Part shown: positions 1-43,029 of the stretch, piece by piece
Layout of the letters: each line of letters starts with the position of its first letter
Numbering within the stretch: position 1 is the first letter of the stretch
Virus record (IMG/VR): IMGVR_UViG_3300042384_001374
Span: 1 to 64,000 of that record
Direction: 5' to 3' (one strand)
Source of the DNA: a virus
DNA length: 64,000 nt
Made by a program: the position numbers and the translations under genes
The notes under the pieces: model-generated
The model's database searches: none
The model's input: the letters and a program-made list of their open reading frames with translations, nothing else
Told to the model about the DNA's origin: nothing

Positions 1-1212
1 TCCTGCGGATAAAGTTGCACTAACGGTGGCGTTTCCAGTGGTGGTTGTGGCCCAAGTCCCAGCGCTAGGAACGCTGAATTGCGTCGCCCCCGCCCTCTGC
101 AAATTTGTAGGTCCATTCGCCGTAACCCCCGCAAATGTCGGACTCTGCTCGACGCCCAGCCCCAGTGCAGTCCGCGCCGCGCCCGGCGTAGCCCCGCCAG
201 TGCCGCCGCTCGCAATCGGCAGGGTGCCAGCGAAAGAATGAGCGACTCCCGCTAGTGTCGCGTAACCCACGATGAGGTTTTGGGCGTCTCCGGTGAGTCC
301 TGCCCCATTGCCGTTGTAGGCTCCAGCGATGGGGCTGGTTACAACGCCAAGAATTGCGCTGTTGAGATAGAGCGGCTGGGTAAAAGAGTTTGAAGTGCTA
401 GTGAAGGTGTTCGCACCTGCCAAGCTAGCATACTGCGGAAGGCGTCCTTGCAAATTGGTGACGATCACACCCGTGTTCGCATTCACCCGAGAAACAACCC
501 CCACCGATTGGATTTCCCCGGTGGTGGGCTTTGTCCCGGTCAGCACGCCGACACCCACAAAGAGTTCCTTATTGAGCAAAAAGGCATTCGTGTTTGCCGC
601 GTCGAGTTCGCCAACAATGATCCCGTCGCCGTCGCCATTGTTTGCGAGGTCTTGATCGAGCAAAGCCACCGCTGGCATTTTCGCCGGATTCGTGGAGTCG
701 GCTGCTGATACAGTGACGCGATCCGTATCACCGACGTTGCCCGTGATGTAAACCGGAGTTCCACGAGTCAATGGGCCACCGCTGGTGTTCCTGACGTGCA
801 GGTAGAGGTTGCCCGCGATACTGCCATGGATGTGGGGGAGAGTTGCTGTGCCAGTTGCTGAAAGCGTGGTGGCGCTCAGGGGGCCGAATGCGGCCTCGCC
901 TGATGCTCCTCGCAAGACGAGGGTGTTGGCGGTGGCGGCGGATGCCCCAGCCGTTGCCCCACTCACCGAGGTGCCATTCGCGGCGATGAAGCCCGTAAGG
1001 TTTGATAGGGTCGCAGTAGTAATGGACGAGCCAGAACCTCCGCCCTCGGTAGCAGACGACCATGCTTCCTCACTTAAAACCGGATCGTCATCGGTTGTGT
1101 CGAGGTAGGATTGATACTGGCTCTTCCCGGTCGCTCCGACAGCGCCAAGGCTGATAGGCGCGGAAATGGTGGTTGCGCCAATCGTGATCGGGGCGTTGAT
1201 GATGGTGCTCAT
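1..1212 (-). CDS. Tail fibre / receptor-binding protein (partial, runs off window start)
   Basis: Not in the ORF track because no stop lies in the window. ATG at 1212 (MSTIINAPITIGATTISAP...) is open to position 1. It is Gly/Thr/Ala-rich with a fibre motif (LPIASGGTGGATPGAARTALGLG) and abuts the upstream adaptor gene. Confidence 0.75.
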   Translation of the reverse strand, partial: MSTIINAPITIGATTISAPISLGAVGATGKSQYQSYLDTTDDDPVLSEEAWSSATEGGGSGSSITTATLSNLTGFIAANGTSVSGATAGASAATANTLVLRGASGEAAFGPLSATTLSATGTATLPHIHGSIAGNLYLHVRNTSGGPLTRGTPVYITGNVGDTDRVTVSAADSTNPAKMPAVALLDQDLANNGDGDGIIVGELDAANTNAFLLNKELFVGVGVLTGTKPTTGEIQSVGVVSRVNANTGVIVTNLQGRLPQYASLAGANTFTSTSNSFTQPLYLNSAILGVVTSPIAGAYNGNGAGLTGDAQNLIVGYATLAGVAHSFAGTLPIASGGTGGATPGAARTALGLGVEQSPTFAGVTANGPTNLQRAGATQFSVPSAGTWATTTTGNATVSATLSAG

Positions 1213-1213
1213 G

Positions 1214-1588
1214 TTATTTGGTCACGTCGTCTCCGACGGTCAGTTTGCCCTTGTAGAGCGTGAGCGGTGACTTTTTTCCGATTTGATAAAACTCCATGTC
1301 CCAGTCCCATTCGCCGTTTTTGGAAAGGAAGGACTGAGTTTCCGGGATGTTTACCGCCCAGGTTGTGGCATTGCTAATGACAATTGGGGCGTTTGGGACT
1401 TCACCAGCAGAAGAATCTAGCTGGTATCGCAAACCATCCTCGCGCCTGACGAAGTGCATTCGCACGCGACTGAGACTCGCCGTAGGTGGTGCTCCATTGA
1501 TCAGCACTGGTCCGATAGATGCGATGCCCGGCCAGCGGTCGCCCCGCTTGTGATCGGGGAGGTTGATTTCTACGGTGTAGTCAGCCAT
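1214..1588 (-). CDS. Tail-fibre adaptor / BppU N-terminal-like protein (paralog of 4720-5085)
   Basis: Shares [26 protein letters not shown] and PLT.Y.G.LTV with 4720-5085; lies directly upstream of a fibre gene. Confidence 0.6.
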   Translation of the reverse strand: MADYTVEINLPDHKRGDRWPGIASIGPVLINGAPPTASLSRVRMHFVRREDGLRYQLDSSAGEVPNAPIVISNATTWAVNIPETQSFLSKNGEWDWDMEFYQIGKKSPLTLYKGKLTVGDDVTK

Positions 1589-1592
1589 GTGA

Positions 1593-1973
1593 TTAGAGTG
1601 TTGCGGTGCCTTTGAAATGCCTCCACCCGGCGAGTCTGACAGCGCGATGAATCACACTGCGGATTGTCCATGGAACACCTGCGTTATACATAGCCTCCTT
1701 AAAGATGTCGTCGGCTTCGTAGCGGTCGAACTGGTCGTTGTGCGGAGAGTAGAGGTAGTCGTGAATGATCGCTGCGTGGAAGTAGCTGCCGAATGGCCCA
1801 AGGAAGGTGTGAAATGTGCGGGGAATCGAAGCGCCATCGGTGACGAAAAAAGCCGGGACTGAAATCGTTCCATAGCTCGACAAGTAGCGGAACGGTTCAA
1901 GCAGCATGAACAGGCGTGCGCCGTTTTTCATGCCGACGTCTTCAAACCGCAGCTTGTCGGGGAATGGATTCAT
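1593..1973 (-). CDS. DUF1353-family phage protein
   Basis: Motifs VPAFFVTDGASIPR, AAIIHDYLY and ADDIFKEAM are typical of DUF1353. Confidence 0.8.
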   Translation of the reverse strand: MNPFPDKLRFEDVGMKNGARLFMLLEPFRYLSSYGTISVPAFFVTDGASIPRTFHTFLGPFGSYFHAAIIHDYLYSPHNDQFDRYEADDIFKEAMYNAGVPWTIRSVIHRAVRLAGWRHFKGTATL

Positions 1974-2173
1974 GGTTGGCGGTTTCTATAGAGGCACGTC
2001 CCGAGTCCGCAGCCTTTGCTCAAGCGGTCCACATCGTCCTGTAGTTTGGAGACGATGCTGCGGAGGTTGGCAATCTCGGTAGCGAGCGAGCGGTAGATGA
2101 TTGCCGCCAGCGTCGAGATGGCGGTGGCGAGGGCGATGAGGACCATCAGGATCCATTCGGTCGGGATTGTCAT
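1970..2173 (-). CDS. Small membrane protein, holin-like candidate
   Basis: MTIPTEWILMVLIALATAISTLAAIIY gives one TM helix followed by a coiled coil. Likely start is ATG 2173. Confidence 0.45.
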   Translation of the reverse strand: MTIPTEWILMVLIALATAISTLAAIIYRSLATEIANLRSIVSKLQDDVDRLSKGCGLGTCLYRNRQP

Positions 2174-2207
2174 TGGGTGTGGGTGAGTGGGTGAATAGCT
2201 GCTGGGG

Positions 2208-2534
2208 TTAGCACCAGAAAGTATTAGGCACGGTTGGATCGTCTGTAGGGCGCGGGTCGCCAGATGTGGATGACCAATGGATGAACTGCTCGCCACCTTC
2301 AGGAATCGGGATGCCGATCAGGTCACGAAACAACACCCAGTATTGCCCGTCTCCGGTGGCTGGCGTGTCCTCGTCGCCGCCCGTGAAGTGCTCGCCGATG
2401 ACGCACAGCGCGTGCGTGTGACTGGCGAGGTTGGATTGCACCACGCCTGACTCGTCGGGCGAAGCGAAGCCGTTGTCCACACCGAATTGCTCGGCGTGGG
2501 CTTTGCTTGGGAATACTAGCAGGTAGTCGGTCAT
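2208..2534 (-). CDS. Tail-fibre-associated small protein
   Basis: 108 aa; start overlaps the stop of the fibre gene 2531-4723. Confidence 0.5.
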
Positions 2535-4723
2535 GACGTGAGGGATTGAAGTTTGAAGTTGGTGAGGCGTTTTTTGTAGTAGCGGACGGCAGCAATGTGC
2601 GAGCCAGACGATCCGATGCTCATCAAATCCGCCCCTGCGAGAATTTCTGACGGTGGGCTATCGGCTGCACTAAGGGTTCCGTTCAAAGCACCTCTGATGT
2701 CGTCCGTTTTATAGGCTAGCGCAGCCCGTGACTCTGGCGTAGGGGATGTTCCAACTGACTGATATTGCGTCACGGCTGCTTTGGTGCAAAAGAACTCAAT
2801 CGGGCTGGAGTCTCCGGTTTTGTTCCCGTTGGTTCCGATCTGAAATCTATTACTGCCTGAGTCAGATGAAACGGCAAACCTTACTATCGGGACATAAGCA
2901 ACCCCTCGGCGAAACTCTGATACCACTGCCACGACAGTCCCCTCGCTCTGATTATAAAACCCACTGAAGGCATACCCCGTAATCGAGCAAACATCCGCAC
3001 TGCGAACCACGGACGCTGTGGTGGTCGGGATGTAGCTGGTTGCAAAGGAGCCTGCTTCGAGTTGTGCTCCCCAGATAAAGATGCCGGATGTCCCGTCGCC
3101 AGTGTATTCTGTGGTAATGCCATCGGAAGACATGCGAATACTCCCCTGTGTTCCCGCAGCACTTGTTACTGTGCAGCGATACCATCCATTACCGAAATTA
3201 GTTATAGTAGGAGTGTTTACGCTTGTGAGTGCTACCCCTGTATCAATGTTAAAAAAAGCATCCAATCCGCCAAGTCTTAAAACAATAAAATTTCTTTCCC
3301 CCTTTTTAGCGAAAACACTAAGTGTATGCGAAGTTGCTGGAGGGGTTACAGTGGAACCAATAGTATGAGTATTTGAAGTGGATGTGTCTTCAACTAATTT
3401 GTCCGCAGTAAGCGCACCATCTGGTGCTGTTGTTGCGTTCGCTGTAATTGATGATCTTGTTTTTGTCCAAGTCGCATCTTCAAATGTTTCTGAGCGAGCA
3501 TATAAATTAGTCCTGCCCTCCTCGATCAGCAAGCCTTTGCACGCGAGGGTGACGGGATCGTGGTCGAAACGTGCAGCGTTAATAGCAGCAGATTGGATAA
3601 GTCCATTGCTTCCCACGAACGTCGCAGCCGAAGCACGGGTAAAAACCGGAGTCGGACCACGGCGGGCGATCAGGGTTTTGTCTCGGGAAAACTGGAGGTT
3701 GAGGCTCAGAAATTCATCGTCTGAGTCCAGCTCGCGGTCCACGTCGAGCGCGTAGGGGATAATCCATCGGCTTTGCGCTGAGCTGTAAAGGTAGAGGATT
3801 TCCGTGGTCGTCCGCATCCACAGCATCCCATCGGTCGGCGATGTCGGGGCGGCGTCGGCAATGGTTACCGGGCCGACGCCTTGGACTCCCTGAATGCCTT
3901 GGATGCCGATAGGTCCTTGCGCTCCGGTCGCTCCGGTCGCTCCGATCACTCCCTGCGGTCCTGTCGCTCCGGTTGCTCCGGTCGAGCCGGTTGCTCCGGT
4001 TGCGCCGATAGGTCCCTGTGGCACGGTCAGATTGAGCACCTGCGCCCCGGCCACTCCAGTAATAGCGACGGCGGCGGTTGATCCCGGCGCTCCGGTAGTA
4101 GTAGTCCCAGCGGTCAGGCGGGAAGCATTTGCGGCGGTGATGGCGCTGGCGGCGGCGTTTGTCGCTGAAGTGGCGGCATTGCTCGCGCTGGTCCCTGCTT
4201 CGCTGGCTTTAGTCGTGGCGGTGCTTGCCGATGCGGTGGCGTTGTCTGCCGAATCGGAGGCGGCGGCGGCTTCGGCGGTGGCGATTCCGGCTTGCGTGGT
4301 GGCCCCGGAATCCGCAGCCGACGCGGAGCTGGCGCTTGCTGCCGCTTCGCTTGCTTTTGTCGTCGCAATCCCGGCTTGCGTGGTGGCCGTGCTTGCCGAG
4401 GTGCTTGCGGATGCCGCAGAGGCGCTTGCTGCGGTCGCACTGCTTGTCGCCTCACCTGCTTTGGTGGTGGCGATGTTCGCTTTTGTGGTAGCAGTCGATG
4501 AGGATGTAGCGGCAGAGGTGGCGCTTGATGCGGCCTCAGCTGCTTTTGTAGTCGCAACCACTTTGGATGCTTCTGCGGCGGCGGCAAAGGTGGCGGCTTC
4601 GTTTTGCGAGTCTAGCCATTGGTTCAGCGTGCCATCAAAGCCATTGGCAAGCGCGAGCTGATAAGCATCTCGCGCCTGCGTGAACGGCGCGGTAATGTCG
4701 ATTTGTGTGATGTGGATGCTCAT
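2531..4723 (-). CDS. Tail/head fibre protein with Ala/Ser/Thr repeats, collagen-like G-X-Y stretch and C-terminal beta-sandwich domain
   Basis: ATTKASEA-type repeats, [10 protein letters not shown] collagen triplets, and [41 protein letters not shown], a motif common in phage fibre/spike proteins. Confidence 0.85.
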
Positions 4724-6325: not shown

Positions 6326-7783
6326 TTAGCCGAGCGAACTGCCGTCGATGATGCGACCGTCAGGACGAGGCACCGCAAGGTGGCGGATGACAATTCCGTA
6401 TTCCGGATTGACCGGGCGGGTGCCGTTGGCCATCACCATCAGGAATTGACCCATGTTGCCAAGCGGGTTGTCTTGCTTGTCTTCGTAGTTTTTCCATTTT
6501 GGCGTTCCGATGTAGTCGGTAGCCATGAAGGTGGCGTCGTCCACCGAAGTGATCGGACGCGGAACCTCGCTGACGCAGACGCCTTGATGGAACACGTAGC
6601 TGTCTTCCCAAGTGGCGATGAGCCATTTCTGATTGGGCGTGCGCTTGAGGGCGAGACCGGAACCGGAATAGACAAACCGTGGCACCTTGAGCCATGCGGT
6701 GAACGCATTGGAGGCAGAGAACGCGGTGATGGCTGCGCCGTCGTCACGAACCACGAAACCGGTAGTGGTTGAAGTGGCGGTTTTGACGATGTACTTGATG
6801 CCACCGGCAATGATGGTCGAGCCTTTAGTGAGCTGTGCGGCATTGGTGGAAGTGGCACCCAACGCGGCCGACAGGGTGTAAGCACCCGTGGTGACAACAA
6901 TGGCGAGGGTTGGAGTGCCTGCGGTGGCGTAGGATTCCCAGCGGTCGCAAGTTTCGTCGAGTGTGTGAGCCCAGCCGTTGTAGCTCCATTTGGTGCGCAT
7001 CGAACCGAGCAGCTTTTCGTTTTGGCTCGAATAGCGGAAATCCTCGCGGACATCCGGGTCGTCCATGATCAGGCGGCGGCTTTGGCGTGGCGAAGTAATG
7101 AGCGAATAGACAGGACCGGCATTGGCTTCACCCAGCGAATCACCGCCAGCGCCTTGATGGTTGAGGTATTCGTAGAACTCATCCAAGAAGCCGTTGCTCA
7201 AAATTGAGCTTTCAGTGCCAGTGGCGGCCGGAAAGACAACGCGGTTGTAGTCGTCCAAACCAGTCAGGTTCATGCCGGAGTCAAGCACGACAAGGTTGCC
7301 TGCGATGCGTTTGTATTCGGAACGCTTGCGGTCAATCCAGTATTCGCGGCCTTGGTCGGCGAGCGCTTTGACGCACGCGCCCATCTGGGTGGCACGAACA
7401 AATTTGTCGCGCAATTGCTCGACGTTGACGTAAGGTCCCCAAATCGACTTCCACTGGAGGTTGTATTCACGCAGCGTCTGACCGAACACGACGTTGTCGG
7501 AAGGTGGGATGTGGCCGTCTGTTTTTTCCGCTTGATGGTTGGCGTGGGCGTCGTTGAACGAAACGTCAGGCACCATGTCAGTCCAGTCCACTTCATCGGC
7601 TCCACCAGCCACCATGGCGCGGTCGAACTGGAAGGTTTTCTGTTTGGACGATTTCTCGTCCTTCCAGAATTCCTGACGATAGAGAGTGATCCACGGGGTG
7701 GGTGCCGCCATCATCTTTTGGTTGATGTCGGTGGAGATTTGAGCTTCGCGCTCGACGAGGTAGTCTTGGATGGTCGTAGCCAT
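6326..7783 (-). CDS. Major capsid protein (putative)
   Basis: 485 aa, follows portal and scaffold, has a long leader and its own terminator. A central Thr/Ala-rich insertion suggests an extra surface domain. Confidence 0.7.
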   Translation of the reverse strand: MATTIQDYLVEREAQISTDINQKMMAAPTPWITLYRQEFWKDEKSSKQKTFQFDRAMVAGGADEVDWTDMVPDVSFNDAHANHQAEKTDGHIPPSDNVVFGQTLREYNLQWKSIWGPYVNVEQLRDKFVRATQMGACVKALADQGREYWIDRKRSEYKRIAGNLVVLDSGMNLTGLDDYNRVVFPAATGTESSILSNGFLDEFYEYLNHQGAGGDSLGEANAGPVYSLITSPRQSRRLIMDDPDVREDFRYSSQNEKLLGSMRTKWSYNGWAHTLDETCDRWESYATAGTPTLAIVVTTGAYTLSAALGATSTNAAQLTKGSTIIAGGIKYIVKTATSTTTGFVVRDDGAAITAFSASNAFTAWLKVPRFVYSGSGLALKRTPNQKWLIATWEDSYVFHQGVCVSEVPRPITSVDDATFMATDYIGTPKWKNYEDKQDNPLGNMGQFLMVMANGTRPVNPEYGIVIRHLAVPRPDGRIIDGSSLG

Positions 7784-9684: not shown

Positions 9685-12006
9685 TCAGATTGATCCGGCA
9701 CGCTTGCGCTGCTGAGTGGTTTGCAAGTCCGCGTCTTTCGCGGCAATCTTGCCCATTGCTTCCTGAGCTGACAAAACTTGTTTTTGCTCCGACGCTTGTT
9801 TTCCAAGCTGCATCTTAAGCACGCCTTCCTGCATGATGTGTTGCAACTTCTGACCCTGCTTGGCTTCAGCAATGGACATTTCATTTGCCGCTTTGCGTTG
9901 AGCAATGGCTTCGTCGCTTTCGCCTTCCGGGCCAGCAGCCTGTTTGCCCTCTTCTTGGCTTTGCGCGTTGAGCATTTTTAGTCCGTTGACAACCAACTCG
10001 CCGATCTGCTGGACTTGCTGGCGGTATCCATTCAATTCCGACTGCACCGATTCGTGAACGCTGGTCATTTCGATGGTAGCAACGCAATGCGTGTAAAGCA
10101 TGTTGTGCTCCATCGTCCACGACATCAAATCGAGCTGGCCTTGATTCACTTGTTCAAGTTCGCCAGCAAGCTCCGGAATGTGGATGGACAAATGCGCCAT
10201 GTGGTCTTGACCGTCGCGTGGTTCCAAGAAGTCTCCTTCGAGAAGCTGGAAGTTTTCGACGTAGGCAATTGAGTGGTCGTAGGTTTCGCGCTTTTCGTTC
10301 GGCTTTCCAGCGTAACGTTCAGCCTTTTCGGGCCCGACAATCTCGCACATGTAATCGTATTCAAAGTTGGCCCGGCCCACTGCGTCAAAAGTGGAATACA
10401 TCTGCTGCATCTGATCATAAATCATCATCCGCGAAGCTCTGGAGCCAGTGCCGATGATGCGAGTGGCGCGAACGCGGTCAAAGTCGATGAGCTTGAACAT
10501 CTCGGCCGGAACGCCGCGATCCATGCAGCGTTGTTTCATTTCTTTGATGCGCTTGGCCCATGTCGGGTCTTTTTGACGAACGGTGTAAATGCGTCTGACT
10601 TGCTCTCGGGTGATGTTGTCGAGTGGGCCGTAGAACAAGTTGATGGCAAACGAATTCATCTTGTTCATGAAATCGAGCTTAGCCGACACTTCGGTTGTGG
10701 TCTCCCGCGAGTCTCTGTCTTGAAGCATCATCCCTCCTCCTGACATGCCGCCTGTCGCACGGTTCATCACGCCACGCGCTTCATTGAGCGCCGGAATCAC
10801 GTTGTTGTTCAGGTTTTGCCCCATTGGCTTCTCCGGAATCTTCATGTTTGGCGGCAGCATGATGCCCCAGCCAGCGTCGATGCTCTGCATATCCTGCGCG
10901 TCGTCCATGGAAGCAGGCTGCAAAATCAAAGAACCTCCGACACGGGCGTTGTCGAAGGTCTTGCAAGTGAGGATGTCGATGGCGTTGCAAAGCTGGTAAA
11001 TGATGTAGCCCATGCCGCGAACGGTGTAAATCAAGCCGCCGTTGCCCACCGAGAAAGCCATGATTTGGAGGAATTGCCCCATTTCGTCGTAGCGACCTTC
11101 GCACTTGTAAATGAAGTCTTCCTTCCAATTGGTATGGCTTTCGGAAAGTGCCGTTTTAGCCGCAATGTAGTAACTTATTTTGCCGTTAAATTCCTTCACC
11201 CACAAATGAACCACCTCAATAGGCGGGCAAATGCAGTCGATGTAGACTTCGTTGGCCTTCATTTCCTGCTGCACTTTTTCCCAGTCGTTCCAGTCAGAAT
11301 TCCCGGATTTTTCGGTGCTTTGCAAGATGGCGAGGCGAATTGCTTTTTCGTTCCAGTCGGGGTCGGTGCCGATTTTGTTGAATAAGTCGGCCGCGCCGTA
11401 AGTTCCTCGTGCCGTGCAGAGTTGCACTTTGTTGGTGATGATCGGGGTGTTGCGGGGAAACTTGAAGTGGTCGAGCCCGGCTACTGAATAATACGGATTT
11501 TCGCGGTCGTCAAAGTAAGGAATGGCGACGCCATGGGTCGAATAGATGTCGCACATCAAGTTGAAGCTGGCCAGCGATTCGCCGCCGTCGTTACGGATCA
11601 GGTCGGTGTATTCTTCGGCCATCACCTTGCTCCACGTCTCGGCGTATTGCTGGTCCACCTCGCGTTTGAGCGGGATGGAGGCGAGCAACTTGGGAGTGGT
11701 GAAAATGTCCACCAGTCCGGCCGTCGCTTCGTTGGTAACAGTGGCGTTCTCCCCGGTGGTGATGTTGAAACGGTCGGACTGGCCTTTGTTCTCAAGTTCC
11801 TTTTCGTTGTGCGGGCCGTGGAAGTCCTTTTGCGCCTGCACCAGCGAGCGGTTGTAAGACCCAGCCTCGTCATCGAGCGCCAGCTTGCGGTGGATGGCCC
11901 TAACCGCCTCCGGCGTGCTGATCCGGCTTTTCGGTTCTTCGAGCGTTTCCGGGTCGAGGGTTCGCAACTCGTCCAATTGTTGTTCGCTTTGGGTGAAAAG
12001 TGACAT
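9685..12006 (-). CDS. Portal protein (putative)
   Basis: 773 aa, helical, with a long Gln-rich coiled-coil C-terminus as in P22-like portals; canonical position after the terminase. Confidence 0.7.
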   Translation of the reverse strand: MSLFTQSEQQLDELRTLDPETLEEPKSRISTPEAVRAIHRKLALDDEAGSYNRSLVQAQKDFHGPHNEKELENKGQSDRFNITTGENATVTNEATAGLVDIFTTPKLLASIPLKREVDQQYAETWSKVMAEEYTDLIRNDGGESLASFNLMCDIYSTHGVAIPYFDDRENPYYSVAGLDHFKFPRNTPIITNKVQLCTARGTYGAADLFNKIGTDPDWNEKAIRLAILQSTEKSGNSDWNDWEKVQQEMKANEVYIDCICPPIEVVHLWVKEFNGKISYYIAAKTALSESHTNWKEDFIYKCEGRYDEMGQFLQIMAFSVGNGGLIYTVRGMGYIIYQLCNAIDILTCKTFDNARVGGSLILQPASMDDAQDMQSIDAGWGIMLPPNMKIPEKPMGQNLNNNVIPALNEARGVMNRATGGMSGGGMMLQDRDSRETTTEVSAKLDFMNKMNSFAINLFYGPLDNITREQVRRIYTVRQKDPTWAKRIKEMKQRCMDRGVPAEMFKLIDFDRVRATRIIGTGSRASRMMIYDQMQQMYSTFDAVGRANFEYDYMCEIVGPEKAERYAGKPNEKRETYDHSIAYVENFQLLEGDFLEPRDGQDHMAHLSIHIPELAGELEQVNQGQLDLMSWTMEHNMLYTHCVATIEMTSVHESVQSELNGYRQQVQQIGELVVNGLKMLNAQSQEEGKQAAGPEGESDEAIAQRKAANEMSIAEAKQGQKLQHIMQEGVLKMQLGKQASEQKQVLSAQEAMGKIAAKDADLQTTQQRKRAGSI

Positions 12007-12440: not shown

Positions 12441-15338
12441 TCAACGCCGCATTTTGCTGCCGCAAGTAGTCGTCAAACCGATCTTCTGCTTCACTTTTTC
12501 CCAGCCCCGGTTGGCCATCTTGCTGACCTTCTTCACTTCCTCTGAACGAAAGCGTCCCTTAGTGACAGCCTTCTCCACCAACAACAGGAAGGCGTCAGCG
12601 CGGTCGGGCGATTTTTTCAGCCGCTTCTTCGCTTCGTCCTTACCCTCCACCCGCACGGTGCGGCCTTCCTTGGCGTGATACTCGCGCTCCACCAGCTCGG
12701 CCATCGTCTCAATTGACAATCCGCTGATCTGGTTGGAACGGATGAACTCGGCCGGTTGAATCCACAACTCTGAGTTTTTGTTGTAATAGGTGCAGTCTTC
12801 GTTGCGAAAAAGCACGGTGCGGTCGGACGCCTTGCCTTGGAAATTGACCTTCTGCACCGCAGGCGACCACTCCACGTCCACGATGTGCCCAAACGGAGTG
12901 CCCGCTCCGGTGTTGTCGTGGATGGCGTCGCACGGTTTTACTCCCATTTGGATGCCCATGTCCCGCCACTTGCGAATAATCTGGTAGCTGAGCGGGGTGG
13001 TCTTGTCGGTGATGTCGTCCTCGATGGTGGTTTCAAGGCAAACGTGCAGATGATCGCGGCCGTTTACCTTCCCAAGCTTGCCGAAAGCCGCTTGCGAACG
13101 GTCGCCGCCGCGTGAAAACGACGGGTCCAGCGATTCGAGAATTTCCGGATGCGTGTCCCACGCTGGTTCGATTTGGCTCAGGGCGCACGAAATGAGAAAC
13201 TCAGTTTCGGAGTAGATCGAATTGGCGGAACCGTCCGGGCACCAGAACGCCTTGACGAACCGGTAGTAACCCCGCGACTTCTTGCCGCCTCGTTGACCCG
13301 CAATGCGGTCGCAATACGCCTGATCCGGCTGCCAATGAAACTTGTGTCCATCCGGGTGGGTAATGCGCGGGCTTTCTTCAGCATTAAAGCGCACGCATTT
13401 GCCGTATTTGGTGCGCCAACGCATCTGGGATTCGTTCACCGACTTCCAGCCCTCGTCAGGTTCGCAGAGGTCGCCGAATGGATCGGTGAGCTTGTCCGGG
13501 TTGGCCATGCCTGCAAATGTCAAAGTTTCGTTGGAAATCAAGTTTTCGGAAGCAGTCTTAAGGATACCCGGATGCAGCTCGTTGAACTCGTCCGCCGCCA
13601 CAACCACCACCGGGTTCTTGATTCCGAGCAGCTCTTTGGATGCTTCCTCCCCGTCTGCTTTGCCCGCCGCCTTAAGCACGATGCCCGAGTTGCGCCACAG
13701 TTTGCCGTTGGCATCCACTCCCTTAATGTAGCCGTCCGAGTCAATGAGCTTGCCGGGACAACCCATGATGGACGCCTGCCCCCACAATTGAGTGAGCGAC
13801 TTCCAAACCCGCATTCGAGCGTCTTGTTTGGTGGTAGACATGATGATGAACCAAGTCTCAGACGGGCGACCCCAGTAGGCCATCAACCCGTAAAGAGCCA
13901 CCGCGTCGCTCTTGCCCGAGTTGTGATGAATTACCCCTTCCGCAAAGTAGTGCCCCTGAATTGGCACGGTCACATCGTAGAACTCGCAAATCCCAAGATT
14001 GGTGATTGACTCCACCTGTGGAAGTGAGACCATCAAATACGATGAAACATCAGAATAAAGGCTGGAGCAAGCATGTGGAACGGAATCAAAAAATTGCGGA
14101 TCTGTTCCGAGAGATGAAAAGCACCCGTCTGGTTGCTGACGAGGTTGGAATGTCGGTGAAAATGATTGGCTATATCCTGAACCGGCAGGGCATTCCGACA
14201 CCAAGGACTGGAATGCGCTGTAACCCTTACGCAGCTTGCGACCGAAACTCAGCGCTAGTGCTAAAAATGTGCTCCGAAAGCTCCACTCTGAACGAGATGG
14301 CGGAGGCAGTTGGAACCGTAGGGCGGGAGGTGAAGAAATTCCTTCGTCGGAATGGCGTGACAAAAGAGTTTCCAAAAGCTCCGCACACCGGAGATCGTCA
14401 TCACCAATGGAAGGGCCGGACGGTGGACAAGGACGGCTACATTCTGATTCATCACAAAGGTCATCCGAATGCGCGGAAGCACAGCCACTTTGTTCTGGAA
14501 CATCGTCTGGTGATGGAAAGCGCTCTAGGCAGGCATCTATTGCCAACTGAAGTCGTTCATCACCGCGATGGAAATAAGCAGAACAACCAGATTGAAAATC
14601 TCCAGTTGTTTGCAAGCAATGGAGAGCATCTTGAAGTGGACCTTGCTGGACGGTGCCCGAAATGGAGCGAGGAAGGGAAGGCTCGTATCCTAGAAGCGAC
14701 GCGCCAACGCTGGCTTCGCGAGCACGCTTCCAGCCGTCCGGAGTCAGAATTAAGTGGTCTCCAGTGCATTTGAACGATTTTCCATTGCTGAGCCGAAATT
14801 CAAACATCTCGGCCTTTCCTTTGAGGTAAGGAGTTTCGGCCAGCTCCGGACCATTCAGCGTCATAACCCACGGTCGCTCACCCGCATCAGAGAGTTCTTT
14901 GATCGTCGGTTCCTCCCATGTGGTCGGATCAAAAATCCGGGTGTCTCCTGAAACGCAAGACGAGCACCCGGCATAGCCGACAAAATTCTTCTCTCCCTTA
15001 TCGGTGATGCACTCGCGCAAAATCGTCTCGGTCCATTCGTTCCAGATAATACGCCTGATCGAGCCGGGGCAGTTGAACGACAGGTCGATGGCTCGGCGTA
15101 GGTAACGCCAGCGGTCGTCCTTGGTCGGCGGTGCACCCGTGCGAGAGCCTCCACGCCACTCAGCTTGGAAGCACATGAACAGACAGGCCGTCAGCTCGGA
15201 CGTTCCATTCGGAAAACCAGCCCCGTCCAACCAAACCGAGCCATCGGCATCAACTGTGTAAGGCGCAGGTTCAAAGAGCCCTTGCGGGCTGGGCGCTATC
15301 GCTGTGGTCATGCCTTCCACTACCAGACATTCAACCAA
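12441..15338 (-). CDS. terL: Terminase large subunit containing an intein
   Basis: Walker A is split by the intein (YAGCSS|SGKS). Also has Walker B VVVAADE, nuclease motif SLDPSFSRGGD and C-terminal KSPDRADA. Confidence 0.9.
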   Translation of the reverse strand: MVECLVVEGMTTAIAPSPQGLFEPAPYTVDADGSVWLDGAGFPNGTSELTACLFMCFQAEWRGGSRTGAPPTKDDRWRYLRRAIDLSFNCPGSIRRIIWNEWTETILRECITDKGEKNFVGYAGCSSCVSGDTRIFDPTTWEEPTIKELSDAGERPWVMTLNGPELAETPYLKGKAEMFEFRLSNGKSFKCTGDHLILTPDGWKRAREASVGASLLGYEPSLPRSISGTVQQGPLQDALHCLQTTGDFQSGCSAYFHRGDERLQLAIDACLERFPSPDDVPEQSGCASAHSDDLCDESECSRPCPPSGPSIGDDDLRCAELLETLLSRHSDEGISSPPALRFQLPPPSRSEWSFRSTFLALALSFGRKLRKGYSAFQSLVSECPAGSGYSQSFSPTFQPRQQPDGCFSSLGTDPQFFDSVPHACSSLYSDVSSYLMVSLPQVESITNLGICEFYDVTVPIQGHYFAEGVIHHNSGKSDAVALYGLMAYWGRPSETWFIIMSTTKQDARMRVWKSLTQLWGQASIMGCPGKLIDSDGYIKGVDANGKLWRNSGIVLKAAGKADGEEASKELLGIKNPVVVVAADEFNELHPGILKTASENLISNETLTFAGMANPDKLTDPFGDLCEPDEGWKSVNESQMRWRTKYGKCVRFNAEESPRITHPDGHKFHWQPDQAYCDRIAGQRGGKKSRGYYRFVKAFWCPDGSANSIYSETEFLISCALSQIEPAWDTHPEILESLDPSFSRGGDRSQAAFGKLGKVNGRDHLHVCLETTIEDDITDKTTPLSYQIIRKWRDMGIQMGVKPCDAIHDNTGAGTPFGHIVDVEWSPAVQKVNFQGKASDRTVLFRNEDCTYYNKNSELWIQPAEFIRSNQISGLSIETMAELVEREYHAKEGRTVRVEGKDEAKKRLKKSPDRADAFLLLVEKAVTKGRFRSEEVKKVSKMANRGWEKVKQKIGLTTTCGSKMRR
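13920..14957 (-). mobile_element. Intein (346 aa) inserted in the terminase Walker A motif
   Basis: N-terminus CVSGDTRI, block B KCTGDHLILTPDGW, C-terminus FYDVTVPIQGHYFAEGVIHHN followed by Ser +1. Confidence 0.93.
14042..14773 (+). CDS. HNH homing endonuclease encoded antisense inside the intein
   Basis: HQWKGRTVDKDGYILI..HP..VLEHRLVMESALGRHLLPTEVVHHRDGNKQNNQIENLQL is an HNH_3-type motif, preceded by two HTH-like segments. ATG 14042, 243 aa. Confidence 0.9.
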   Translation: MKHQNKGWSKHVERNQKIADLFREMKSTRLVADEVGMSVKMIGYILNRQGIPTPRTGMRCNPYAACDRNSALVLKMCSESSTLNEMAEAVGTVGREVKKFLRRNGVTKEFPKAPHTGDRHHQWKGRTVDKDGYILIHHKGHPNARKHSHFVLEHRLVMESALGRHLLPTEVVHHRDGNKQNNQIENLQLFASNGEHLEVDLAGRCPKWSEEGKARILEATRQRWLREHASSRPESELSGLQCI

Positions 15339-15352
15339 CCGAAAAGACTTTT

Positions 15353-15607
15353 TTAGCCACGACTAAAATCGCACTTCGGCAACATAGACGCAAGTTTGTC
15401 AAATTCAGCTCGATTCCTTTCGATCCAGACGCGCTCCACTTCTTCTTGAAAGAATCGAATTACCTCACGCATCTGATTCCTCTTTATCTCACTCGTTGCA
15501 GCGACGCTAGGAGCCGCTTGAACTTCAACTGCGGCACATAGTGAGGGAGCGATAAACGGAGCGCTCACAGCGCCCGTCAGCAGGGTAAAGAAGGAACGTC
15601 TTTTCAT
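15353..15607 (-). CDS. Small protein with twin-arginine-like signal peptide
   Basis: MKRRSFFTLLTGAVSAPFIAPSLCAA. Confidence 0.5.
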   Translation of the reverse strand: MKRRSFFTLLTGAVSAPFIAPSLCAAVEVQAAPSVAATSEIKRNQMREVIRFFQEEVERVWIERNRAEFDKLASMLPKCDFSRG

Positions 15608-18994: not shown

Positions 18995-20842
18995 ATGAAG
19001 ACTACATCAGCTAGCACTTATGCCTCCGCGTTCATCGACACGATGGCGTATTCCGACATCAACGGCAACGTCGCCGAGTCAATCGAAGACGCGCTTGCCG
19101 CCAACTTCAGCCGTGACTTGTTCACGCCCACCCACAACCTGCCTGCCGACATCTTCAAATCAGACGAACTGGTTCACGTCATCAAGCCATCGTTGGTCAG
19201 GACAATGGCCCAAGAACTCGCCGCGTTCCACGACCGCCGCCGCTTGGCAGACGCGCGCTGGACCCAAAAATCCACGTTGTTCTCAAACTTCGGCCGCTGG
19301 CTGCAAGCGGACGAGAAGGCCATCGTAGCCAATGCCAAGGAAGGCTTGGAATCAGTTGAGGACCGCTTGGGCGTCCTGCCCTACGTAGTCGAAAAGATCC
19401 GCTCACGCAAAGCGTGGAAAGACGAGCAAAACGTCGCGCAAGACCCAACGAATTATGCGGACACCTCGCTCGACTACGATCTGCCGCCACGCACCAAAGG
19501 ACGCTCGCACGCTCCGGCGTATTACAGCATCACCGGACCAAGCGGTCGCACCATCGACCTGAGCCAACCGCACAACGCGTTCAAGCCGATCCTCTCATCC
19601 AATCCAAACGATGCGTTCCGACGCTTCATCACCCGCTTGGGTGTGGACCGCAAAGGCGGCGAGACCGAGTTGCTAAACCTGTTGCTCAAGGCCGACAAAG
19701 TGACTTGGGTCAATGCCAACGGCGAACCGTGCAGCGACTACAAGTGGCTGCCGAGCTACGTCAGCTCAATGCGCAACGGTGTGTGGTTCGTGATGGTCGG
19801 CTGGAAGCTCAACCCAAAGTGCCAATACGGCCAGTTCCACCGCGAGCTGCCTGACGGTTCGATGGTGATGCCGTTCATCGAGAACGCATCCGGCGAGCTT
19901 GAGCCATTCATCCCCGGCGTCCACATGGAGTCGGACATCCTCACCACTTCGCAACTCGACTACAAGCTGCTCTGCGAAGACAGCGGCATGGCAATCGTGG
20001 ATAAGAACGAGGACATCGTCGATTACATGAACGAGTCGGAAGAACTCGTCATGGAAGGCTTCATCCGCGACGACGACCACGCCGAAGAGGAGGTTGACAA
20101 CTGGCTGCTAATTCAAGCTGCGTCCGAAATGGACCGGATGATCGACCTACGAGTCGGTTCGGCAGTGTGGCTGATCGACGGCTTCGACGATCAGGTGTTC
20201 ACGCACACCCGCAGTGTAGGTGCAGAGTGCCACAAGCTAAAGATGCTCATCCGCGACAAAAAAGCTCAAATTGCCGCATTCGTCACATCAACGCCACCTG
20301 ATGGTTTCGATGCTGAGTCGCGCAATGCCGAAGGCAAAGACCTCGCCTATGCCTTGGAAGCACTCCAGAGCAAGCTCACGTCCACCCGCGCCAACTACCG
20401 CTTGGCCAGTGAGGATTTGAAAGCGCAAACGCGTCAAACACTCTGGGAAGATCGCCTGCCACGCGAATGCGTAGGCACACCACGCTCGTCAGCTCCGGAT
20501 GCCTTCAGCGCACCATTGCCAACAAGTGTGAATGTGCTGGGCGGGCATCCCATGGCAGGTGCGAACGTGACGGTCATTCAAGGTGCGTCTAACGAGCCGC
20601 GCAACATCGCGATTTTAGCCAAGGCTAAAGTAAACGCGGTCGAACGCATCGTCCCAACCGCCAATCCGATGCGCTTGTTGCAAAACGGCCTCACACGCCT
20701 CTGCACCACACCTACGGGCAATGTATCCACCCGGATGGCTGCAAAGCCTCCTGTGCGTCACACAACACCCGCAAACGCATCACCAAAGCTCAAGCGCACA
20801 TTGCTGCGCATGATGCTCGGTGGCAAGCCGCTGAATGCATAA
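18995..20842 (+). CDS. Hypothetical early protein (615 aa)
   Basis: Long ORF with phage-like codon use; no family recognised. Confidence 0.7.
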   Translation: MKTTSASTYASAFIDTMAYSDINGNVAESIEDALAANFSRDLFTPTHNLPADIFKSDELVHVIKPSLVRTMAQELAAFHDRRRLADARWTQKSTLFSNFGRWLQADEKAIVANAKEGLESVEDRLGVLPYVVEKIRSRKAWKDEQNVAQDPTNYADTSLDYDLPPRTKGRSHAPAYYSITGPSGRTIDLSQPHNAFKPILSSNPNDAFRRFITRLGVDRKGGETELLNLLLKADKVTWVNANGEPCSDYKWLPSYVSSMRNGVWFVMVGWKLNPKCQYGQFHRELPDGSMVMPFIENASGELEPFIPGVHMESDILTTSQLDYKLLCEDSGMAIVDKNEDIVDYMNESEELVMEGFIRDDDHAEEEVDNWLLIQAASEMDRMIDLRVGSAVWLIDGFDDQVFTHTRSVGAECHKLKMLIRDKKAQIAAFVTSTPPDGFDAESRNAEGKDLAYALEALQSKLTSTRANYRLASEDLKAQTRQTLWEDRLPRECVGTPRSSAPDAFSAPLPTSVNVLGGHPMAGANVTVIQGASNEPRNIAILAKAKVNAVERIVPTANPMRLLQNGLTRLCTTPTGNVSTRMAAKPPVRHTTPANASPKLKRTLLRMMLGGKPLNA

Positions 20843-40363: not shown

Positions 40364-41560
40364 ATGACCACCACACCAACTCCGCTCTACTACGACAACT
40401 GCCTGCTCACCGAAGACGATTTGCCCAATCTCGCCGCCGAGCACAAAATTCCATTCACTGATCTGCAAAAAGCCTGCGAGCAAATCCGCAGCAAAGGCGA
40501 AGTGCTTTACAGTCTGTATCCAAACACCACGCGAGAGCGGCTGCGGACGTTCGCAGCGTCCATCACCTTTGAGCCTGATGAAGCTTTGGATTACACCCCC
40601 GGAGAAGACCCCACTCCATGCCTTGTTGTAAATAGTCCGCAGGAGGCAGCCACAACGTCTTTGGTCACCGTTGAGGCACATACTGACGCCGAAGCAGTTC
40701 AAAGCCCGCTAAAGCCGCGCAGCAAAGCAAAGAAAAGCAAACTGGAAGAATCCGTGTTCGATCTCGCAGCCGAACTTTACGATGAAGAAGAAAATGATGA
40801 ATCCACCGAACCTGCCCCGGTCACCCAGCGCGACGAAGTGGTGGAAAGCGCTTCCGTTGCGCTAATGCAGGCAATGGTCGGTGACAGCGCCTCGTTCATC
40901 ATCACCGAGGAAGGCATCTGCTCCATCAACCCGGCGCACCCGCCTACCTTGGTGCATTCCTACCAAGTCGTCTCGTCTGTCCTACGCTTGTCTGACCTGT
41001 CTGACAAAGTAAACGACAAAGGCTGCTGGATGCTTGGCTCAATCCTTGCTGCGTTGGAAGACTACCACGGAGAAAACTTCAACGTCGGACAGGTGTGCGA
41101 GCAAACTGAAAAAGCAGAAAACACCATCCGCACTGCACTGTCTGTGTTCAAAGCGTTCAAAGACAAACGTTACAACCTGTCATTCAGTTCGCACAAGGAA
41201 GGATTTCACATGAAAGCCCCGCTGGAAGTGAAAAAGCTCATCCTGCACAAAGCCGAAACTTACGAACTGACCACCAAGCAAATTCGGGCGCTCGGCAGCG
41301 TGTATCGAGCGATGGAAGACGACACCACCATTCGCAACATCCGCAGCAAACAGCAGGCTTTGGATTTGGTTTCGGCGGTGGAAAGCGTCAAAGTGAAGTG
41401 GTTGGTCTATGAAGACGGCAGGATGGTCGAGCTAACTCGCACAGACGGCTCAACCCCAGACGGTCAGATGGCCATCAATCTAAAAGACAAAGTGTTCTTC
41501 ATCAACGGCGAAAAAGCCGGAGAGGTGGAACGCATCGGCGTCAAAAAAGCCGTGAAGTAA
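40364..41560 (+). CDS. Hypothetical protein upstream of the helicase
   Basis: 398-aa ORF; no family recognised. Confidence 0.65.
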   Translation: MTTTPTPLYYDNCLLTEDDLPNLAAEHKIPFTDLQKACEQIRSKGEVLYSLYPNTTRERLRTFAASITFEPDEALDYTPGEDPTPCLVVNSPQEAATTSLVTVEAHTDAEAVQSPLKPRSKAKKSKLEESVFDLAAELYDEEENDESTEPAPVTQRDEVVESASVALMQAMVGDSASFIITEEGICSINPAHPPTLVHSYQVVSSVLRLSDLSDKVNDKGCWMLGSILAALEDYHGENFNVGQVCEQTEKAENTIRTALSVFKAFKDKRYNLSFSSHKEGFHMKAPLEVKKLILHKAETYELTTKQIRALGSVYRAMEDDTTIRNIRSKQQALDLVSAVESVKVKWLVYEDGRMVELTRTDGSTPDGQMAINLKDKVFFINGEKAGEVERIGVKKAVK

Positions 41561-41604
41561 AATTGATTTTAGCCGCAACTAAAACTGAAAGGAGCACCCG
41601 ACCC

Positions 41605-43029
41605 ATGAGCAAAATAAAGAATCTCAGCGAAGACATCACCAAAGCGCCACCACATGCAATAGGACCTGAAAAATCCACTCTTTCATCTATGTTGCAAGAA
41701 CCCGGACGATTTATCCGGCAAGCGCTCAATGAAAATCTAGTTGTTGACGACTATTACATTCCAGCCCATCGCCATCTTTATCAATTTTTGCTCAAACTTC
41801 ACGAACAAGGAGAGCAAATCGAATTGGTGTCACTGGTCCAGCGGCTACTTGACAACGGGCAGCTTGATCGAATTGGAGGCGCGTCGACACTTGCCGAGCT
41901 GCATAACTACGCTATCGGACACAGCCATTTCTCTCTTCATTTGTCTCAAGTGAAAGACAAAGCGGTGCTGCGGGAAATCATCCGAAAAGCAAACGCACAA
42001 ATCCGTGCGGCTTACGAACAGCCCGATGAAGTCAAAGAGCTGGTCAACCAGCTTGCTTCGGACGCCGCTGAAATGGCGGTGAAGACCGAAAACCGGGCGT
42101 CCGATTTCAAAAAGTATCGCGAACAAATTGTCACTCCGGATTCGATGAAAGAACAAGTGGTCAGCTACCTCAACGGCGACCGGGTGCTTGGTGGAGACGG
42201 CTTTTTCCTTTCCCCGTTCGATCTCGCATTCCGCAAGCACGAGTGGACGGTGTGGTGCGGAACGAGCACCCACGGCAAATCGCAAGCCGTGCAGAATCAG
42301 CTCGCTTGGCTTGCATCGCTCGGCCGCAAGTCGATCATCGCTTCGCTGGAGCAGCCGCCCGAAATCACGCTTGGTCAAATCCTCAAGGCAATGACCGCCT
42401 ACAAGGACATCGCAAGAAGCGAGGAATTCGAACCGGCGTGGGGCTACATAAACACCCAGATCCAGATGTATCGCGGGCAACGCAAGACCAGCCCGAAGCA
42501 TCTCATCGAAACCTTTCGTCAAGCCTATCTGAACAACGGCACGGACACCGGGGTGATTGACAACCTGATGTGCCTGCAAGTGGATAGAGGCGACAACTCG
42601 GCCTTGGCGAACGCCATCGACATGTTCCGGGTGTTTGTTTCGGAGTATCCATTTCACCTTCATCTTGTCGTCCACCCCCGCAAACCGGGAGGCAACGAAT
42701 CACCCAACCGCGCACCCACCCAAGCCGACATCCGTGGACCGGCAGAAATCGGCGATCAACCGAACAACGTCATCGTCATTTCCCGAGACTTGGACAAGAG
42801 CCGAAAGCTCGCCGAGATGGAAGCGGGGCATTTCTCCAAGCTCGAACGCGAAGCCTTCTGGCAAAGCACTCCCTGCGGCAAGATTGCGGTTGAAAAGCAG
42901 CGCATGACCGGCTCGATGCCCATCAAGCACACTTGGTTTGACCCGGTTTGCAACCAGTTCATGGATCACCCCGGCAAAGCCAGACCGATGTTCTTGATTC
43001 CACCGTGGGAGGTTGAGCCTTTGGCTTGA
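41605..43029 (+). CDS. dnaB: DnaB/SF4 replicative helicase
   Basis: DnaB N-domain PPHAIGPEKSTLSSML, Walker A GTSTHGKS, ASLE, VIDNL, VVHPRK and EKQR. Confidence 0.85.
   Translation: MSKIKNLSEDITKAPPHAIGPEKSTLSSMLQEPGRFIRQALNENLVVDDYYIPAHRHLYQFLLKLHEQGEQIELVSLVQRLLDNGQLDRIGGASTLAELHNYAIGHSHFSLHLSQVKDKAVLREIIRKANAQIRAAYEQPDEVKELVNQLASDAAEMAVKTENRASDFKKYREQIVTPDSMKEQVVSYLNGDRVLGGDGFFLSPFDLAFRKHEWTVWCGTSTHGKSQAVQNQLAWLASLGRKSIIASLEQPPEITLGQILKAMTAYKDIARSEEFEPAWGYINTQIQMYRGQRKTSPKHLIETFRQAYLNNGTDTGVIDNLMCLQVDRGDNSALANAIDMFRVFVSEYPFHLHLVVHPRKPGGNESPNRAPTQADIRGPAEIGDQPNNVIVISRDLDKSRKLAEMEAGHFSKLEREAFWQSTPCGKIAVEKQRMTGSMPIKHTWFDPVCNQFMDHPGKARPMFLIPPWEVEPLA

Follow-up and report, generated by a model that had tools for sequence, protein, structure and literature searches.

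We analysed a stretch of viral DNA (hereafter the window) that constitutes the first 64 kb of the complete 76,099-bp virus record IMGVR_UViG_3300042384_001374; direct terminal repeats are present in the record. At positions 12441-15338 the minus strand of the window encodes the precursor of the large terminase TerL, a single open reading frame (ORF) of 965 amino acids (aa) counted from its first TTG codon (the ATG at 15311 is the likely start), which runs through N-extein, intein and C-extein free of stops. As delimited by alignment and by the junction DNA, the N-extein (14958-15338, minus) ends in ...AGCSS, the first half of the Walker A motif. The C-extein (12441-13919, minus) starts with SGKSD, the second half of the motif, and continues through the rest of TerL to the stop codon. 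Between them lies a 346-aa class-1 intein (13920-14957, minus) that begins with Cys1 and ends in His-Asn, followed by a +1 Ser. Nested within the intein, on the plus strand, is a gene for an HNH homing endonuclease (14042-14773; 243 aa plus stop), which starts at a conserved ATG at 14042 inside the longer plus-strand ORF 14006-14773. The initial annotation had placed the intein and the HNH gene at these coordinates, with HNH codon positions 1/2/3 lying opposite terL positions 1/3/2, and the ORFs and the coordinates modulo 3 bear this out.

Alignment with intein-less relatives locates the extra 346 aa exactly within Walker A, between AGCSS and SGKSD; the two halves run together uninterrupted in P0122, in P0125-P0127 and in about 40 loci. 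The Pfam model Intein_splicing (PF14890) matches the intein at 5e-10, above the cut-off, with both ends aligned and the middle gapped. As initially annotated, the splicing blocks are intact: all the class-1 residues (C1, T65/H68, D328, H345-N346 and the +1 Ser) are in place, and C1, H68, D328, H345 and N346 are invariant among 61 aligned intein sequences. An AlphaFold2 (AF2) model computed from this 61-sequence alignment reaches a predicted local distance difference test score (pLDDT) of 96-98 at aa 1-95 and 303-346, falling to 36-57 at about aa 100-300. The confident part, searched with Foldseek, retrieves the Mtu RecA, Ssp DnaB and Npu DnaB mini-inteins (E 1e-7 to 1e-6). In the predicted structure, the intein is thus a mini-intein (Hint) fold plus a disordered linker of about 205 aa. 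On the minus strand, the N-terminal splicing domain (14673-14957, about aa 1-95, pLDDT 95-98 as delimited here) holds blocks A and B and is conserved across loci, the linker occupies 14052-14672 (about aa 96-302), and the C-terminal splicing domain (13920-14051, aa 303-346) holds blocks F and G. The linker is the antisense read-through of the HNH gene. It had been described as Ser/Pro/Cys-rich filler, which holds for Ser (16%, vs 7% in the exteins) and Pro (10% vs 4.5%) but not for Cys, which is outside the linker's eight commonest residues. Given that terL is essential, that the catalytic residues are intact and that Walker A would otherwise be disrupted, TerL probably undergoes protein splicing.

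The plus-strand gene had been proposed to encode a helix-turn-helix (HTH) plus HNH endonuclease, and hidden Markov model searches of the two frames agree: Intein_splicing is found in the one, as given above, and HNH_3 in the other, at 1.6e-9 (37.6 bits vs a cut-off of 24.8). Of the 15 PHROG families that the protein also matches, 14 carry the annotation HNH endonuclease (best match 5.8e-25); its homologs number 272. Its AF2 model (pLDDT 87.9) consists of two HTH domains (aa 6-48 and 65-103), a beta-beta-alpha-metal (beta-beta-alpha-Me) core (aa 126-200) and a C-terminal helix (aa 210-231). Residues H173, H174, N182, N186 and H196 are invariant, and so are the catalytic H/N/H columns across 52 sequences. 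The top match of the model in the Protein Data Bank (PDB) is the homing nickase I-HmuI (1u3e), with a probability of 0.99 and a weak E-value; in a profile search of PDB sequences, only the HTH repeats were matched. The protein is also 28% identical (E 8e-6) to mycobacteriophage loci (e.g. Bombitas and Constella) annotated as DNA methylase and/or HNH endonuclease, which may be the hidden out-of-frame HNH insertions described by Arsenault et al. 2025 (PMC11855218).

The two genes overlap functionally at one end. Intein block B, KCTGDH (14754-14771, minus), covers the last HNH codons and reaches the HNH stop codon (14771-14773), as the initial annotation had noted, and over 14673-14773 both strands code for a functional domain: the C-terminal tail of HNH on the plus strand and the N-terminal splicing domain with block B on the minus strand. 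A C-terminus of the form ...PCI-stop, which mirrors the FKCT of the intein, is shared by many HNH homologs.

To gauge selection we counted differences by codon position in codon alignments of six divergent intein-bearing terL alleles. Over the HNH core (aa 1-215) the differences per site at HNH codon positions 1/2/3 are 0.26/0.19/0.54, and in the close pair L124/L125 they are 0.033/0.024/0.252, i.e. third positions change about ten times more. Purifying selection on the HNH protein leaves just such a pattern, which supports the proposal of a separate antisense endonuclease gene. Over the HNH tail (aa 216-243, 14687-14770) the pattern flips to 0.23/0.39/0.24, the fastest-changing site being the wobble position of the intein; here, therefore, the intein frame dominates. 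Since HNH position 3 faces terL position 2, the amino acids of the linker are free to change: the same bases retain 67% amino-acid identity when read as HNH vs 36% when read as linker. Together with the low pLDDT of the linker, this accords with the earlier view that the central part of the intein is non-functional.

A further kind of selection acts on the mere openness of terL. When the HNH protein was held fixed and synonymous codons were redrawn from the codon usage of this genome, the terL frame stayed open in just 0.09% of 20,000 trials, with a mean of 5.8 stops; in the reverse test, with the intein frame resampled, the HNH frame stayed open in 0.7%. The remaining four frames of the overlap contain 7-16 stops. 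The HNH protein sequence itself bears the mark of this requirement. Phe followed by Ile, Met, Thr, Asn or Lys in HNH always creates an antisense stop, and such dipeptides number 0 in 120 HNH homologs (125±10 expected) and 7 in 134 representatives of 50% identity clusters (94±9 expected). By way of control, the corresponding antisense frame holds 1-10 stops in 39 of the 61 HNH_3 homologs taken from prokaryote genomes; these stop-carrying homologs are mostly distant and match in the catalytic core only. The suggestion that selection keeps the terL frame open is therefore upheld by both the resampling and the Phe dipeptide avoidance. Three modes of selection are at work: on the HNH protein in the core, on the intein protein in the true overlap and on bare terL openness across the linker, the last of which forbids certain dipeptides in the HNH protein.

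The arrangement extends well beyond the window. In the viral and metagenome collections, the frame relation of the window is shared by 87 of 89 related loci, and in these 87 the antisense frame has no stop across the HNH match. Their HNH identity falls to as low as 35%, and each HNH lies within a long antisense ORF, most of them with detectable N- and C-terminal intein blocks on the flanks. The locus L002, from an independent sample, has the same layout (99.6% identity in HNH and 99.4% in the C-extein), and further instances come from dozens of divergent metagenomic loci and from two isolated phages, which answers the concern that an inverted segment had been created in assembly. Long antisense ORFs are frequent in GC-rich coding DNA, and the HNH ORF could in principle be a chance product of this kind, or else of an assembly inversion. 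Considering the resampling, the frame relation shared by the 87 loci, the prokaryote control, the agreement of independent assemblies with isolate genomes, and the many homologs and confident fold of HNH, we regard the probability of either as negligible.

Two cultured phages carry the unit. In Pectobacterium phage Ymer (OP748252, L155) the terL P-loop intein resides in an ORF at 1107-3371 (minus) with the antisense HNH at 2480-3178 (plus); terL is annotated as 'hypothetical protein' and the HNH gene is unannotated. In Pseudoalteromonas phage PHS3 (KX912252, L156) the corresponding positions are 1188-3314 (minus) and 2456-3166 (plus), and the GenBank annotation has a truncated 391-aa terL product beside an 'HNH endonuclease'. 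Gene callers likewise favour the HNH ORF and so shorten the intein-bearing TerL of P0121 and P0123 to about 530 aa, with a start in the linker; protein databases therefore under-report the architecture.

Such split gene calls (530 aa in P0121, the truncated terL of PHS3) could be taken at face value, the two halves of TerL being translated separately and joined by trans-splicing around a free-standing HNH gene, with the open read-through frame incidental. The layout does resemble that of the fractured genes reported by Dassa et al. 2009 (PMC2677866). However, the frame is open across the whole linker in those 87 of 89 loci, as against 5.8 stops expected, and HNH avoids the very dipeptides that would close it; selection therefore favours contiguous translation, and we consider a split terL highly improbable.

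At every locus where both splice junctions are readable, the insertion is in a P-loop. The usual form is Gxxx, then the intein, then [S/T/C]GK[S/T]; a few inteins are inserted after GK or in the helicase-type motifs GLGKT and GVGKG. The host proteins are diverse: Terminase_3, AAA ATPases, clamp-loader-like proteins and helicases of the DnaB, SNF2 and Strawberry-notch types. The HNH family comprises 1180 clusters (50% identity) at E<=1e-30, and at least 520 metagenomic stretches encode a relative. The layout of an intein with an antisense HNH is common in environmental phages. The initial annotation had pictured a free-standing HNH gene invading a mini-intein in antisense at this locus. This does not hold as a local event: with the same frame in 87 of the 89 loci, the window contains one old composite unit, and, as that unit moves between P-loop genes, the invasion would be at best a single ancient event.

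The P-loop at which the unit resides is also used by another intein. The 967-aa terL homolog P0173 contains a canonical LAGLIDADG intein (PF05204/PF05203) in the same P-loop, three residues downstream, after GK; the motif is therefore a double target. In L072 (metagenome contig Ga0172381_10009121; 539-1618, minus) the C-extein of a protein that hosts an antisense-HNH intein is itself interrupted by a second intein, with HNH_3 in frame (Pfam Intein_splicing 2.6e-19, HNH_3 2e-9). We considered this in-frame HNH as a direct relative of the window's HNH and rejected it, the similarity being merely distant (33% over 70 aa).

Since the HNH gene of the window sits within a packaging gene, it might encode a terminase-associated packaging nuclease as in cos phages, and not a homing enzyme. 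HNH proteins are established packaging cofactors, as reported by Kala et al. 2014, and adjoin the terminase genes of cos phages. Yet the HNH gene is missing from near-identical intein-less phages and from about 40 intein-less relatives, the same HNH family occurs inside inteins of helicases, clamp loaders and AAA ATPases, the genome has direct terminal repeats, and the fold match is a homing nickase, I-HmuI. A packaging role for HNH is accordingly extremely unlikely.

The distribution of the unit points to mobility. Within the terL clade, 8 of 48 alleles bear the intein, its presence having changed at least seven times on the extein tree, and each of the eight adjoins intein-less alleles. L125 (with the intein) and L110 (without) are 99-100% identical in extein DNA and have an identical junction sequence; nearly identical terL alleles with and without the element indicate recent mobility. 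Similarity of the unit is, moreover, decoupled from that of its host protein. The intein and HNH of L157, the closest relative of the element in the genome collections, are 59-60% identical to those of the window, yet identity drops to 34.5% for the C-extein and 25% for the N-extein, and this comparison of sequences argues for transfer of the unit between unrelated exteins.

These observations bear on another possibility, that the HNH ORF is a decaying or domesticated remnant kept open by inertia within an intein that is inherited vertically only. The window copy has no relatives above 67% identity except its near-identical twin, and no promoter was recognised (see below), both of which would fit a remnant. 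But purifying selection on HNH is strong, the recent pair L124/L125 included, the catalytic H/N/H columns do not vary, inertia would have to contend with an HNH frame that survives few of the intein-frame resamplings, and presence/absence polymorphism is precise between exteins that are 99-100% identical. We therefore consider a remnant unlikely.

Taking together the observed anatomy, the folds, the selection in both frames, the presence/absence polymorphism and the transfer of the unit between unrelated exteins, we consider it likely that the window carries a two-strand selfish element in the Walker A codons of terL, composed of a minus-strand intein and a plus-strand HNH homing nuclease. In the mechanism that we propose, the TerL precursor would be translated straight through the linker, and the Hint domain would then splice itself out, restoring GCSS-SGKS and with it an active terminase. 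HNH would be translated separately, from its own message. During co-infection, the nuclease would nick or cut alleles that lack the intein, in or close to the codons of the P-loop, and recombinational repair would copy the intein and the HNH gene jointly into the empty allele. As deduced from sequence, splicing, HNH expression, cleavage and its specificity are each a predicted property of the element.

Several points weigh against this reading. The HNH model, being multi-domain, obtains weak E-values in Foldseek (0.14). A promoter and terminator scan of 13300-15500 revealed no sigma-70-like promoter upstream of HNH. No Shine-Dalgarno sequence precedes the HNH start either, but the same is true of all 16 ATG-start genes whose upstream 30 nt were inspected. 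Bar the near-identical twin, the window HNH is without a relative above 67% identity, so that for this copy in particular recent homing is no more than a possibility. Among intein-less alleles the nearest, P0122 (92% protein identity in the C-extein), could reflect precise loss of the element, and the patchy distribution in general can be explained by loss as well as by gain.

The sequence context offers some clues as to how HNH may be expressed. The hairpin motif of this genome is absent near HNH and is not enriched overall. Most of the 16 leaders are A/C-rich and G-poor (e.g. those of 6326-7783, 18995-20842 and 40364-41560), and the 13 nt directly preceding the HNH ATG resemble them. Leaders of this composition, lacking Shine-Dalgarno sequences, suggest a host with SD-independent initiation. 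The contig of L157 is binned with an Opitutae metagenome-assembled genome. The initial annotation had assigned HNH to the 'early-gene strand', expressible independently of late terL. The shared orientation is real, HNH being co-oriented with the replication genes (their helicase occupies 41563-43029), but the gene lies inside the late block, upstream of the start of the plus-strand gene block at about 17.5-19 kb, and hence cannot be read from the promoters of that block.

We advance a broader proposal more tentatively, rating it slightly short of an even chance. One ancient, frame-locked unit of intein and antisense HNH may represent the commonest non-canonical intein architecture in phages. 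Its nuclease would recognise DNA coding for Walker A, and the unit would consequently hop between unrelated genes for P-loop NTPases, such as terminases, helicases, clamp loaders and AAA ATPases. The timing of nuclease expression would not be tied to that of the late host gene, and dual coding would have shaped the amino-acid sequence of the nuclease.

The phage of the window belongs to a poorly characterised lineage. The TerL exteins match about 90 homologs, mostly of 575-615 aa and most without an intein, and the PHROG terminase match of TerL is weak. A tblastn search with the whole of TerL gave no match in the 'phages' collection, the terL clade being found in metagenomic collections only. 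A single-protein scan of viral contigs with the C-extein retrieved near-identical copies only, and an alignment query was needed for the wider set. A 4407-aa ORF (50700-63923, minus) has no PHROG match at E<=1e-5, and the ORF in the portal position (9685-12006) and several further large ORFs likewise have no PHROG match.

The element is of interest beyond this lineage. It is a selfish element coded on both strands for hundreds of bases, in which the dominant strand switches where functional domains overlap. Gene callers and GenBank truncate or mislabel such terL genes (PHS3, Ymer, P0121), and intein surveys that rely on in-frame domains miss the whole family. The findings support the 'splicing first, nuclease later' view of intein origin as well as the idea that nucleotide-binding motifs act as bridges for extein switching. 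Finally, because cultured carriers exist, splicing through a 205-aa linker, antisense timing and the target of HNH are all testable.

Antisense endonucleases in inteins have precedents. The initial annotation had mentioned out-of-frame homing endonucleases in some phage inteins, and these are indeed published. Gosselin, Arsenault and Gogarten (bioRxiv 10.1101/2025.01.02.630785) describe nucleases in actinophage inteins, VSR-like ones in antisense and EndoVII-like ones out of frame, many of which are in terL, and propose both that free-standing endonucleases invaded the inteins and that exteins are switched via nucleotide-binding sites. Antisense LAGLIDADG endonucleases are known in the inteins of Synechocystis DnaX and of a Chloroflexus SpoVR-like protein (Gorbalenya 1998; Gogarten 2002, both as cited in bioRxiv 10.1101/2025.01.02.630785), and also in inteins of actinophage terL and other genes. 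The element described here resembles the antisense LAGLIDADG and VSR-like inteins in having the endonuclease ORF on the opposite strand between blocks B and F with the intein frame open, in its frequent use of terL as host and in a patchy distribution that suggests ongoing transfer; the origin proposed for them, a free-standing endonuclease entering an intein, is likewise the one proposed here. It differs from them in its nuclease, which is of the HTH plus HNH_3 (I-HmuI-like) type, and from the surveyed antisense inteins in that the HNH_3 family is very large and inhabits many P-loop protein families outside actinophages. As the survey (bioRxiv 10.1101/2025.01.02.630785) lists HNH as in-frame only, we classify the element as an HNH_3 variant of a known architecture, and not as a described member of it. 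Full-text literature searches turned up no description of an antisense HNH within an intein, and the paper describing the Ymer phages never mentions inteins.

Three other systems invite comparison. In fractured genes (Dassa et al. 2009, PMC2677866), too, an endonuclease gene of the free-standing type is nested between the two parts of a split intein; here, by contrast, the host ORF is continuous (965 aa) and selected to be so, and the nuclease is of the HNH and not of the VSR-like type. Some phage methylases harbour hidden HNH insertions (ShiLan domain; Arsenault et al. 2025, PMC11855218), which also place an HNH in another frame of a stop-free host ORF, but these insertions are on the same strand and without splicing domains, whereas in our case a complete intein would remove the insert from the protein. 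Finally, the element has the HNH_3 catalytic core in common with in-frame HNH inteins and with intron-encoded nickases of the I-HmuI type, although, unlike in the in-frame HNH inteins, the endonuclease is not part of the intein polypeptide. What is distinctive of the present architecture is the real functional overlap of the nuclease gene with block B and its very wide distribution.

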